From: Gemmatimonadales bacterium | Lineage (GTDB): Bacteria; Gemmatimonadota; Gemmatimonadetes; Gemmatimonadales; JACORV01 | Assembly: GCA_035623755.1 (NCBI GenBank) | Contig: DASPSV010000012.1 | Coordinates: 3,641-67,640, forward strand | DNA: 64,000 nt | Direction of reading: 5' to 3' | Made by a program: the position numbers and the translations under genes | The notes under the pieces: generated by a model | Told to the model about the DNA's origin: nothing | Database searches by the model: none | The model's input: the letters and a program-made list of their open reading frames with translations, nothing else | Part shown: positions 25,388-28,256 of the stretch, one piece after another | How positions within the stretch are numbered: the stretch's first letter is position 1 | Layout: the number at the start of each line of letters is the position of its first letter

Positions 25388-25531
25388 GTGCATCCTCCGC
25401 AAATCCCGCGGTTCGACTTCCGGCCGGCACCGTCCCGTCGAGGTCACGCAGGACCCCCTGCGGCCGGCCGGTCAGCCGGCGTAGGACGACGCCCAGCCAT
25501 GGAACGCGACTGGAACGGTCGTTCGAGAGGG

Positions 25532-25546
25532 GCAATTTCTATGCCG
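25532..25546 (-). promoter_or_regulatory. sigma-54 (-24/-12) promoter of the Rieske/cyt b operon
   Basis: The minus strand reads CGGCATAGAAATTGC, with GG at 25545-44 and GC at 25533-32 (exact 12-nt offset, -12 = TTGC). It lies in an AT-rich patch about 145 nt upstream of the 25387 start and divergent from the PAS kinase/EBP genes. Confidence 0.6.
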
Positions 25547-25732
25547 ATTCTGGAAATGACCATTTTCGGTTTCTTGATCTGGTTCCGAGCCGAACTCGGA
25601 TGCCGCCGGGCTCATCGGCCCATACTACCCGAGGCTTGGCCTCGCTCGCGAGGGGGTGGCCGGCTCGAAACGGGAGCCCAATGGGCGCCATTATTGCGAG
25701 ACTGACGCAACTTGACCAGCTTTCGGGACAGG

Positions 25733-26815
25733 ATGACTCACACCGCGACCCAGCCGGACCCAGCCCTCATCGCCGCCATCGTGGACATGGCTGCCGACGC
25801 CATCATCTGCGTCAGCCCGGAGGACCTGATCCTGTCCTCCAACCGGGGAGCCGAGAAGATGTTCGGCTGGACGGCGCAGGAGCTGGCGGGCCAGCCGTTC
25901 GCGATCCTGCTGCCGGAGGAGGAGCTGGCGCGGGGCGAGATCGACTGGATGCGCCGCACCACGATCGCCCACGGCTCGCTGCGCGACTACGAGACGCGCC
26001 GCAAGACCAAGGACGGGCGCATCATCGACGTGAGCATCACCCGCACGGCCGTCTACGACGACGCCGGCAACCTGATCGGCTACTCGGCGATCCTGCGCGA
26101 CATCTCCGATCGCAAGCGCATCGAGCGGCAGCTGCTGACGGCCGAGCGGCTGGCCACCGCGGGCCAGGTGGCGGCGGGCGTCGCGCACGAGATCGGCGCG
26201 CCGCTGACGGCCATCTCGGTCGCGGTGGACCACATGCTCCAGTCGCGCTGCAACTTCTGCGGCGGCGGCGAGGAGATGCAGGTGCTGCTGTCGCAGACCG
26301 ACCGGATCGCCAAGCTGGCGCGCCGGCTGGTGAACCTGGCCAAGCCGGCGGGCCTGGTGTTCACGCCCACCAGCGTGAACGAGGTGGTGGAGCAGGCCAC
26401 GAGCCTGGTGCAGCCGCAGCTGAGCCGCAGCCGCATCCGCCTCGAGCTCGACCTGACGCGGGACCTCCGCGCCATCCACGCGGACGAGGCCCAGCTCCAG
26501 CAGGTGCTGATCAACCTGTTCCTCAATTCCCAACGCGCGATGGCCGATTCGGGGGGCACGCTCCGCGTCTCGACCGGTGCGGCCGGTGCGGACACCGTCG
26601 AGATCGTCGTGGCGGACAACGGCCCGGGGATTGCAGAGGCGGACCTGCCGCACATCTTCACGCCCTTCTTCTCGCGCTCCGGCGGCACGGGCCTGGGACT
26701 GGCGCTGGCGGCGCAGATCGTCAAGGCGCACCGGGGGACGATCGACGTGGCCTCGCAGGTCGGCAAAGGGGCGACCTTCACCATCCGGATTCCTGCAGCG
26801 GTGGCGCATGACTGA
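25733..26815 (+). CDS. cytoplasmic PAS-domain sensor histidine kinase
   Basis: PAS domain (IVDMAADAIICVSPEDLILSSNRGAEKMFGW...YSAILRDISDRKRIE), H-box VAHEIGAPLTAI, N-box NLFLNSQRAM, and G-boxes DNGPGI and GTGLGLALA. I preferred the ATG at 25733 over the TTG at 25712. Confidence 0.85.
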   Translation: MTHTATQPDPALIAAIVDMAADAIICVSPEDLILSSNRGAEKMFGWTAQELAGQPFAILLPEEELARGEIDWMRRTTIAHGSLRDYETRRKTKDGRIIDVSITRTAVYDDAGNLIGYSAILRDISDRKRIERQLLTAERLATAGQVAAGVAHEIGAPLTAISVAVDHMLQSRCNFCGGGEEMQVLLSQTDRIAKLARRLVNLAKPAGLVFTPTSVNEVVEQATSLVQPQLSRSRIRLELDLTRDLRAIHADEAQLQQVLINLFLNSQRAMADSGGTLRVSTGAAGADTVEIVVADNGPGIAEADLPHIFTPFFSRSGGTGLGLALAAQIVKAHRGTIDVASQVGKGATFTIRIPAAVAHD

Positions 26816-28256
26816 GCCCGAAGTCGTCGAGCAGCCCGCCCAGCGGCGGCGCGTCCTCGTGGTCGAGGACGACGCCGTGGTGCTCGGCCTCCTGACCAAG
26901 ATCATCGGGGAGGCGGGCTACGACGTGGTAGGCGCGCCCACAGGAGAGGCCGCGCTCGCCGAGCTGGACAAGCAGCTGTTCGACGCCGTGCTGCTCGACC
27001 TGAACCTGCCGGGCGTGCAGGGCATGGACGTGCTCTCGGTCGGCCCGACGCTGCAGACCGACACGCCGTTCATCGTCATGACCGCCTTCGGCTCCGTGGA
27101 CACCGCGGTCGAGGCGATGAAGCGGGGCGCCTTCGACTACGTGAGCAAGCCGTTCCGCACCGAGGAGCTGCTGCTCACGCTGCGGCGCGCCCACGAGGAG
27201 ACCGAGCTGCGGCGGGAGGTGGCCCGGCTCCGGCGCAACGCCAAGGAGGACGCCCCGGGCGTCGAGATGGTCGGGCGCAGTCCGGCCATCGAGCGGGTGC
27301 GCGACCTGATTGCCCGGGTCGCCCCCAGCCGCGCCACGGTGCTCATCACCGGGGACACGGGCACCGGCAAGGAGCTGGTGGCGCGCTCGATCCACGCCTT
27401 GAGCGGCCGGGCCGAGCGCTCCTTCGTCGCCGTGAACTGCTCCGCCATCCCCGAGACGCTGCTCGAGTCCGAGCTGTTCGGGCACGTGAAGGGCGCCTTC
27501 ACGGGCGCGATCGCGAACAAGCGCGGCCTGATGGAGGAGTCGAGCGGCGGGACGCTGTTCCTCGACGAGATCGGCACCGTCTCCGCCAACATCCAGGTCA
27601 AGCTGCTCCGCGCGCTGCAGGAGCGCAGCATCATGCGGGTCGGCGGCCGCGAGCCGGTGCCGATCGACATCCGGCTCATCGCCGCGACCAACCTCGACCT
27701 CGGCGAGGAAGTGCGCGGGGGCCGGTTCCGCGAGGACCTGTTCTACCGGCTGAGCGTGTTCCCCATCCGCGTGCCGTCCCTCGCCGAGCGGCGGGACGAC
27801 ATCCCGCTCCTGGCGGCGTACTTCCTGCGCCGCGCCGCCTCCGAGCACGCGGTGACGCCGCCCACCATCCCGCCCACCACGATGCAGCGGCTGATGGAGT
27901 ACGAGTGGCCCGGCAACGTCCGGGAGCTCGAGAACTTCATCGAGCGGTCCGTGATCATGCACGCCGGCGCGAAGACCATCCCCTTCGACCCGGCCGAGGG
28001 GCTGTACCGGCGCCGCGAGCACGACGTGCTGAAGACGGCACGCACCGAGCGGTGGAACCTCGACCACCTCGAGCGCGAGTACATCCTCGCCGTGCTCGAG
28101 GAGGTGAGCGGGCACCAGGGCCGGGCGGCCGAAGTCCTCGGCATCGACCGGCGCACGCTGTACCGCAAGCTCAAGCGCTACCGCGGCGAGCCGGAGGAAG
28201 GCGAGCCGGACGACCTGGGCGACGAGCCCGAGGCCAGCCGGGTTGAGACGGGCTAG
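26808..28256 (+). CDS. sigma-54-dependent response regulator (REC + AAA+ EBP + HTH), NtrC family
   Basis: The ATG at 26808 overlaps the kinase 3' end by 8 nt. REC domain (VLVVEDD...DLNLPG), Walker A GDTGTGKE, an exact GAFTGA motif, ESELFGHVKG, and the HTH AAEVLGIDRRTLYRKLKRY. Confidence 0.9.
   Translation: MTEPEVVEQPAQRRRVLVVEDDAVVLGLLTKIIGEAGYDVVGAPTGEAALAELDKQLFDAVLLDLNLPGVQGMDVLSVGPTLQTDTPFIVMTAFGSVDTAVEAMKRGAFDYVSKPFRTEELLLTLRRAHEETELRREVARLRRNAKEDAPGVEMVGRSPAIERVRDLIARVAPSRATVLITGDTGTGKELVARSIHALSGRAERSFVAVNCSAIPETLLESELFGHVKGAFTGAIANKRGLMEESSGGTLFLDEIGTVSANIQVKLLRALQERSIMRVGGREPVPIDIRLIAATNLDLGEEVRGGRFREDLFYRLSVFPIRVPSLAERRDDIPLLAAYFLRRAASEHAVTPPTIPPTTMQRLMEYEWPGNVRELENFIERSVIMHAGAKTIPFDPAEGLYRRREHDVLKTARTERWNLDHLEREYILAVLEEVSGHQGRAAEVLGIDRRTLYRKLKRYRGEPEEGEPDDLGDEPEASRVETG

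Follow-up and report, generated by a model that had tools for sequence, protein, structure and literature searches.

Which regulator decides when an uncultured Gemmatimonadales bacterium of soil makes its ~47-haem electron-transfer apparatus? The question is raised by a 64,000-nucleotide stretch of contig DASPSV010000012.1 (hereafter the window), which carries an operon for three multihaem cytochromes (MHC1-MHC2-MHC3), a convergent Rieske/cytochrome b module, and a gene pair encoding a histidine kinase (HK1) and a σ54-dependent enhancer-binding protein (EBP1). Gemmatimonadota are abundant in soil and rarely cultured, their respiratory regulation is essentially unstudied, and our literature search returned no paper linking σ54 to Gemmatimonadota cytochromes. 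The reading that we favor, with a probability of roughly 0.6, is that this respiratory island, conserved in Gemmatimonadales, would be transcribed from σ54 promoters, P1 driving the three large multihaem cytochromes, P2 the Rieske module, and P3 an Omp85-family outer-membrane gene. At each of them the σ54 holoenzyme would be held in the closed complex. Opening would require ATP hydrolysis by an NtrC-type activator that its kinase has phosphorylated and that has assembled at an enhancer farther upstream. EBP1 would be the most likely activator for P1 and, by adjacency, for P2, with HK1 as its soluble sensor partner, probably reporting redox or metal state through a CxxC motif. EBP2, the activator of a second pair (HK2/EBP2), would most likely serve P3 through the palindrome GTGTCSGAACGACAC, and may also touch P1 through a half-site in its proximal enhancer element.

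Orthologous regions were gathered by two scans, one of a genome collection with cytochrome b and the other of metagenomes with MHC2, and the loci were sorted into a near group and a far group, the latter with an MHC1 identity of 35-41%. Genes were annotated from Pfam and NCBIfam matches, and haems were counted as CxxCH motifs. The window has a guanine-plus-cytosine (GC) content of 73.8%. Its cytochrome b is 71-81% identical to the cytochrome b of Gemmatimonadales metagenome-assembled genomes, and one metagenome contig of 34 kb (L038) is identical to the window across the overlapping part.

Sigma-54-type elements upstream of the respiratory operons

The first-pass annotation of this DNA had placed -24/-12 elements with exact GG-N10-GC spacing upstream of both respiratory operons, and both were found at those positions (Table 1), P1 reading TGGCAT-GGCCA-ATGCT and P2 reading CGGCAT-AGAAA-TTGCC. 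The GGCAT half at -24 that the two were said to share does occur in each; it is, however, simply the σ54 consensus GGCAY and no special match, and T and C interchange freely at its last base among orthologues. The bare pattern GGCAY-N5-WTGC has four matches in the window against 2.2 expected, so it is not rare. When the suggested specificity check on GGCAT-N5-WTGC was made within the window, the bare pattern thus proved not to be unusual, but an approximate σ54 weight matrix, based on the published consensus and scored at ~128,000 window positions, ranked P1 first and P2 fifth. The description of both elements as lying in AT-rich patches was also accurate, as P1 and P2 fall in the two lowest-GC stretches, whose GC minima over 60 nt are 0.40 and 0.43, the window mean being 0.738. 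The leader lengths given earlier, about 90 and about 130 nt, agree with our positions: the -12 GC of P1 puts the predicted start near 14917, with the ATG at 15007, and that of P2 (25533-2) puts it near 25520, ~133 nt before the ATG at 25387.

Comparison across genomes carries more of the argument for P1. A TGGCAY-N5-nTGCW element lies 72-175 nt 5' of MHC1 in all lineages but the three most distant loci. In 25/25 distinct related loci neither TGGCA nor TGC varies and the spacing between them is fixed, whereas the spacer and flanks are variable, yielding 21 different 16-mers among the 25. This conservation of the core extends to the far group, and P1 has a unidirectional, canonical σ54 form. P2 in turn stands out as an identity island (consensus tCGGCAYnGAAnTTGCC) in otherwise unalignable intergenic DNA, its GG being kept in 12/12 and its GC in 11/12 of the loci that bear the Rieske/cytochrome b module. 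Under phylogenetic footprinting, P1 and P2 therefore credibly behave as σ54 promoters.

The P1 element is preceded by a conserved enhancer of rigid geometry, with the consensus TGTCGCAWTnTGTCC-N19-GGACA. The distal TGTCGCAWT, followed by nTGTCC, starts 120-124 nt 5' of TGGCA, and (C/G)GGACA follows exactly 24 nt past this first element in 23/25 loci. Measured from the -24 element, the two parts of the enhancer begin at distances of 120-124 and 81-85 nt, and the whole occupies about -150 to -105 from the predicted start. Three inverted repeats had been proposed as activator sites, and all three exist in the window. Only TGTCC-N19-GGACA near P1 (14779-14807) is conserved elsewhere, and it belongs to this strongly conserved enhancer. 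The two near P2, TCCGAG-N5-CTCGGA and AAATG-AC-CATTT, are lineage-specific and not supported as activator sites, since L001 and L008 have lost the region that holds them and L002, L007, L041 and L044 have another sequence there. No 6-mer or 7-mer was common to the upstream regions of P1 and P2 across genomes. A mechanically called open reading frame (ORF) of the divergent LTXXQ-family gene overlaps the P1 enhancer and only translates enhancer DNA; the real LTXXQ start must therefore lie further downstream.

Invariant arms, TCCGTA...TACGGG, flank the predicted transcription start in the first part of the P1 leader (14913-14945, + strand). Across six genomes the arms showed no covariation, being invariant, and hence no RNA structure is claimed. 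The leader of the window also carries a 21-nt insertion (14975-14995) relative to every orthologue.

The module served by P2 is facultative, being present in 12 loci and absent from 8 otherwise syntenic ones (L042, L047, L053, L056, L058, L060, L067 and L074), where HK1-EBP1 comes directly after MHC3 on the same strand. In the near-group loci without the module (L042, L047 and L067), the MHC3-HK1 spacer contained no σ54-like site on either strand (best score <=6), and the far-group spacers held only a partial match of the TGG-N10-GA type, in 4/5 loci. In half of the genomes P2 reads equally well toward the kinase; in L009 (TTGCT) and L003 this reverse reading is lost and the forward one kept. 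Since P2 is gone from near-group loci without the module, and since the reverse reading is lost in L009 and L003, P2 belongs to the module and not to the kinase operon. The divergent arrangement of activator gene and promoter, previously described as the classical layout for an activator of a neighboring promoter, does hold in the window, but it is secondary, the module being an insertion between MHC3 and the kinase.

Rearranged versions of the module occur in L005, L006 and L080, where cytochrome c follows cytochrome b and NrfCD-like genes are present. L005 and L006 were set aside as evidence on P2, their best σ54-like match lying inside an ORF and being uninformative.

Table 1. Positions of the regulatory elements and genes of the respiratory island in the window.
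Feature	Position (strand)	Description
P1	14891-14906 (+)	TGGCATGGCCAATGCT; GG-N10-GC, GG at 14892-3, GC at 14904-5
P1 enhancer (upstream activator sequence)	14769-14811 (+)	TGTCGCAAT-c-TGTCC (14769-14783), then TTTGTGAATTCGGACACAAG (14792-14811)
P2	25546-25531 (-)	CGGCATAGAAATTGCC; near-palindromic GGCA-N7-TGCC; predicted to drive the cytochrome c/Rieske/cytochrome b module
P3	9054-9069 (+)	CGGCATGGGCCGTGCC; σ54-type, ~35 nt before an Omp85-family gene
P3 enhancer palindrome	8943-8957 (+)	GTGTCCGAACGACAC; directly after the EBP2 stop codon
Kinase-proximal block	25694-25735 (+)	TTGCGA-N3-TGACGCAACTTGACCA-GCTTTCGGGACAGG-ATG; abuts the HK1 start
MHC1-MHC2-MHC3 operon	15007-21144 (+)	Multihaem cytochromes, by Pfam, NCBIfam and CxxCH counts
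MHC1	15007-16509 (+)	8-9 CxxCH motifs; lipoprotein signal
MHC2	16641-18305 (+)	17-20 haems; N-terminal NapC/NrfH-like anchor
MHC3	about 18610-21144 (+)	16 haems
Facultative Rieske/cytochrome b module	21310-25387 (-)	Convergent to the MHC operon; by Pfam
Cytochrome c	25387-25055 (-)	Module gene
MHC4	25023-24202 (-)	Module gene; 5 haems
DOMON protein gene	within 21310-25387 (-)	Module gene
Rieske protein	23149-22577 (-)
Cytochrome b	22563-21310 (-)
HK1	25733-26815 (+)	PAS-HisKA-HATPase kinase; divergent from the Rieske module
EBP1	26808-28256 (+)	REC-AAA+(GAFTGA)-HTH_8 σ54 activator
HK2	6348-7568 (+)	HAMP kinase
EBP2	about 7565-8941 (+)	REC-AAA+ with GSFTGA, HTH

The HK1-EBP1 pair and its linkage to cytochrome genes

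The description of the pair as a cytoplasmic PAS histidine kinase and an NtrC-type activator with an exact GAFTGA motif was confirmed by Pfam, with PAS, HisKA and HATPase_c domains in the kinase, and by motif reading in the activator. EBP1 matches Response_reg, Sigma54_activat (229 bits), AAA_lid_14 and HTH_8, and its functional motifs are intact: LLDLNLPG with the receiver aspartate, Walker A GDTGTGKE, GAFTGA, Walker B LFLDE, FREDLFYRL, NVRELEN and a Fis-type helix-turn-helix (HTH). With its REC, AAA+ and HTH domains, it falls in the response-regulator class of NtrC-family activators, and it matches the solved structures of NtrC1 (2.7e-103), ZraR (1ojl) and NtrC. HK1 shows the boxes of a HisKA kinase (AHEIGAPL, NLFLNSQRA, DNGPGI and GGTGLGL, with the phospho-acceptor H152), aligns to the core of ZraS (9jfj, 3.4e-39), and has no transmembrane segment evident from reading its sequence. 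Both proteins miss every NCBIfam equivalog cut-off, EBP1 scoring 440 vs 714 bits for AtoC, 415 vs 559 for NtrC and 403 vs 760 for ZraR, and HK1, among others, 112 vs 240 bits for NtrB. By sequence, then, the two form a generic NtrC-family pair, and not NtrBC, AtoSC or ZraSR.

The most unusual feature is the invariant CxxC of HK1. It reads RCxxC(G/A/V)G at residues 172-178 (window 26247-26267), 21-24 residues after the phospho-accepting histidine; both cysteines are invariant in 20/20 orthologues, and the residues between them vary. When HK1 is aligned to ZraS 9jfj, the motif maps to the stretch that separates the helices of the dimerization and histidine phosphotransfer (DHp) domain, where ZraS has no cysteines. 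A single-sequence AlphaFold model of HK1, with a predicted local distance difference test (pLDDT) score of 38, was unusable for structure reading. The CxxC is a possible redox or metal switch, a reading suggested by the respiratory targets, and through it HK1 would probably report the redox or metal state of the cell. A more specific proposal, bold and improbable, is that the CxxC pairs would bring four cysteines together at the dimer tip, which could form a disulfide or metal/Fe-S switch coupling redox state directly to σ54 transcription of genes for cytochromes, their maturation and haem synthesis across Gemmatimonadota; its lesser variant is that the P2 and P3 σ54 sites might be usable in either direction. 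Were the switch real, HK1 would sense by a mechanism that is not known from that position in histidine kinases.

No protein of the region is more highly conserved than EBP1, which shows 90-95% identity in the near group vs about 80% for cytochrome b. The pair is present in 12/12 P1-bearing metagenome loci that extend past MHC3, and in the genome loci in addition. In a large protein collection, EBP1 orthologues form a continuum down to about 66% identity, including Longimicrobiales, and all four of the loci whose gene context was examined place the orthologue beside cytochrome genes. At 82% identity (L080) the neighbors are cytochrome b, NrfCD-like and multihaem genes; at 72% (L081) they are EBP2-like, Omp85-like and multihaem genes, and the P1 architecture appears again; at 68% (L083) hemA-ccmCDEFGH is divergent from the kinase-EBP pair; and at 66%, in a complete 5.4-Mb Gemmatimonadota genome (L082), a multihaem operon and ccmF/G/H lie nearby. 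The best σ54 match 5' of the multihaem operon in L082 is TGGCCTGCCCGTTGCT, with two ATGTCGC elements 113 and 71 nt upstream of it (region 1469-1597), and a perfect 23-bp palindrome, GAATGTCGCAAACTGCGACATTC, occurs ~160 nt 5' of the EBP gene (9815-9842). That the EBP1 family may recognize TGTCGCA-type sites and be tied to c-type cytochrome expression is best indicated, on present evidence, by these contexts. The distant cytochrome b loci (L010-L037) had no EBP linked to them, two sporadic cases excepted.

A conserved block immediately upstream of HK1 (consensus TTGcnA-N17-CAsCTT, with the start codon within ~10 nt) is kept in 20 loci, whether P2 is present or not, and is probably the own promoter and start region of the HK1/EBP1 operon. 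Its segment TGACGCAACTTGACCA resembles the distal element of P1 more closely than any other sequence in the window does, apart from that element itself; reciprocal matrices support a 16-mer similarity between the two, and the block contains the half-site TGTCCCGAA. This is suggestive only of a shared EBP1 site, which might provide autoregulation and possibly an enhancer for P2. The HK1 operon seems to start only ~5-10 nt before its start codon, which would make its mRNA nearly leaderless, and the AnnTTT core of the block recalls the Bacteroidota-type -7 motif.

Two further observations concern EBP1 and its 3' side. An acidic tail, EPDDLGDEPE (28196-28240), extends past the HTH and is invariant between the near and far groups, and a 13-bp GC hairpin (z = -5.7) after the stop codon (28304-28334) overlaps the mechanical start of a Usp-like ORF. 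Between EBP1 and the Usp-like gene, far-group loci (L053, and L058 at 16735) carry TGGCACAG(C/G)TTGAGCA; the window holds a similar string with GG-N9-GC spacing.

Proposed assignment of activators to promoters

The first-pass annotation had overlooked a second NtrC-type system (HK2/EBP2, 6348-8941), together with P3 and its enhancer. EBP2 likewise remains below the NCBIfam equivalog cut-offs. The GG-N10-GC of P3 is kept in 8/8 loci, near and far, upstream of an Omp85-family gene whose apparent real start is the ATG at 9104. The enhancer palindrome has the form GTGTC(G/C)GAACGACAC, lies ~111 nt upstream of the -24 element of P3 and is unique in the window; across near and far loci it reads GTGTCGGAACGACAC in 6/8, with one-base variants in the window (CCGAA), L076 and L062. 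In the window and in L041, L043, L053, L058, L062, L076 and L081, the trio HK2-EBP2-Omp85 precedes the MHC operon; it is missing within 6-8 kb 5' of MHC1 in L055, L057, L060 and L074, where P1 and its enhancer are kept.

The points against the favored reading, in which EBP1 would act on P1 and P2 and EBP2 on P3, all three being σ54 promoters, concern both the pairing of activators with sites and the nature of the sites. As regards the pairing, EBP2 is nearer to P1 (6 kb) than EBP1 is (12 kb); the recognition helices of EBP1 and EBP2 are both invariant, so they do not discriminate; TGTCGCA alone shows no enrichment; and the half-site GTGTCCGAA of the EBP2 palindrome recurs in the P1 enhancer. 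In the form GTGTCSGAA, this half-site occurs four times in the window vs 0.65 expected, with one copy inside the proximal element of that enhancer; another, at 4458, was discounted, since it falls among the opening codons of a gene and probably arose by chance. The resemblance of the kinase-proximal block to the P1 distal element is marginal, a sliding control giving about 0.07-0.8 such matches by chance for an element picked post hoc, and the block positions that match vary among genomes. The distance from the block to P2 also varies, from ~60 to ~190 nt, and this variation, together with the retention of the block where P2 is missing, indicates that the block is primarily the control region of the kinase operon. 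The nearness of EBP2, its place upstream of the MHC operon in the loci named above, its half-site in the P1 enhancer and its invariant recognition helix leave room for P1 to be a σ54-type promoter run by HK2/EBP2, or by both systems, with EBP1 confined to P2, to its own operon or to both. We regard this arrangement as unlikely. EBP2 already has a neighboring target, P3, with a perfect palindrome; the P1 distal TGTCGCA matches the palindrome of a distant EBP1 orthologue and not that of EBP2; and HK1-EBP1 is always present, whereas four loci that keep P1 with its enhancer lack EBP2 and Omp85 within 6-8 kb 5' of MHC1. The earlier view of the PAS-kinase/EBP pair as the likely dedicated regulator thus survives in part. 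The pair is the best candidate, since no informative locus separates it from the multihaem operon, and its control of both operons is plausible but, with a second EBP system nearer to P1, not exclusive. A broader doubt is whether HK1/EBP1 is instead a general NtrBC-like regulator, for nitrogen for example, present by synteny without function, the cytochrome promoters being served by an EBP elsewhere. The soluble PAS-HisKA-HATPase architecture of HK1 is NtrB-like, NtrC is among the top NCBIfam matches of EBP1, unrelated neighbors (Usp-like, HNH and argininosuccinate lyase genes) are equally syntenic in the near group, and the high conservation of EBP1 would suit such a role. We give this idea little credence, however, as both proteins score under all equivalog cut-offs, NtrB and NtrC included, neither glnA nor any other nitrogen gene lies nearby, and the linkage to multihaem, ccm or hemA genes outlives all other synteny at 66-72% identity (L081, L082 and L083).

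As regards the nature of the sites, P2 has exceptions, with TTCC at -12 in L003 and weak versions in L044 and L048; no conserved enhancer for P2 was identified in the footprinted loci; and rpoN is not among the genes of the 64-kb window. It is nevertheless very likely that the source genome, judged from its gene content here, encodes σ54, because the window holds two intact EBPs, and EBPs and σ54 correspond near-perfectly across genomes, σ54 being near-universal in diderm bacteria with lipopolysaccharide (Francke et al., PMC3162934). Finally, in most genomes P2 and P3 read GG-N10-GC on both strands, owing to a C after the -12 GC in 10/12 P2 and 7/8 P3 loci. This C departs from the consensus W, and for P3 the reverse reading even outscores the forward one in the matrix. 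Such symmetry would be expected if P2 and P3 were palindromic GGCA-N7-TGCC operators of a dimeric transcription factor, their σ54 likeness being fortuitous, an explanation to which we give very little credence. The spacing is exactly σ54-like, and both elements have an EBP gene beside them and a gene at a sensible distance downstream. P3 is accompanied by a typical enhancer palindrome at ~111 nt, the forward reading of P2 outlasts the reverse one in L009 and L003, and P1, which belongs to this island too, is canonical and reads in one direction only.

Comparison with known systems and further features of the window

The closest general parallel is the enterobacterial NtrB/NtrC-glnAp2 system, which likewise combines a soluble PAS-HisKA-HATPase kinase and a REC-AAA+(GAFTGA)-Fis-type HTH activator with a -24/-12 promoter, an enhancer about 100-150 bp upstream and, possibly, an activator site over the promoter of the regulator operon itself. 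The NtrC site is TGCACCA-N3-TGGTGCA, and the L082 site has the same 7-N3-7 format. The pair described here differs from it in scoring below the NtrB and NtrC cut-offs (112 vs 240 and 415 vs 559 bits), in the lack of nitrogen genes nearby, in its half-site, TGTCGCA / TGTCC, and in a kinase with an invariant CxxC in the DHp loop. E. coli ZraS/ZraR-ZraP and AtoS/AtoC provide the best NCBIfam and solved-structure matches (AtoS, ZraS 9jfj, AtoC and ZraR 1ojl), and the gene divergent from P1 encodes an LTXXQ-family periplasmic protein, as does zraP. However, the scores lie far under the equivalog cut-offs, HK1 is without a membrane or periplasmic sensor, and the targets are cytochromes. A ZraPSR-type module was also rejected, since the LTXXQ gene has no conserved σ54 site on its strand in the 25 loci.

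RegB/PrrB and ArcB are redox kinases with regulatory cysteines in or beside the kinase core that control respiratory genes. HK1 may be analogous to them in its conserved cysteines beside the kinase core and its respiratory targets; it differs in being soluble and having its CxxC pair in the DHp hairpin loop, in the lack of a quinone-binding membrane domain, and in its output through a σ54 activator. In Geobacter sulfurreducens, σ54 and NtrC-family activators are linked to Fe(III) reduction and c-type cytochrome genes (PMC7962754), and RpoN/PilR-type control in Geobacter is indicated by the title of Juarez 2009 as cited in PMC10599522. That organism resembles ours in having many RpoN promoters and EBPs and being rich in multihaem cytochromes, and NCBIfam includes a σ54 regulator model for a Geobacter/Pelobacter 'GPMC system'. 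It belongs to another phylum, however, and is compared with the present case as an analogy; here a promoter/enhancer pair lies directly on cytochrome operons and is conserved phylum-wide. Given the Geobacter precedent for σ54/EBP control of electron-transfer genes, the kind of control proposed here, though well supported, is conventional and involves no new regulatory principle. What the island would offer is a concrete regulon model. It comprises a kinase/activator pair that occurs phylum-wide in company with genes for multihaem cytochromes and cytochrome maturation, together with defined promoters, a rigid enhancer and the candidate half-site TGTCGCA / TGTCC, and it would help predict when the ~47-haem apparatus is expressed.

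Outside the island, the window encodes a fusion of an FTR1 iron permease with a cytochrome c domain (61568-63412, - strand) and a response-regulator/PglZ fusion protein (45041-46612, - strand). An Rfam search of the window returned no family at the gathering threshold. The second-best σ54 matrix match in the window, AGGCACAGCCTATGCT, lies in the non-coding gap between lgt and the FTR1/cytochrome c gene (61463-61580, + strand), and two strong hairpins (z = -5.2) come after it. This region could encode a σ54-dependent small RNA of ~90 nt, or could merely hold the terminators of two convergent genes.

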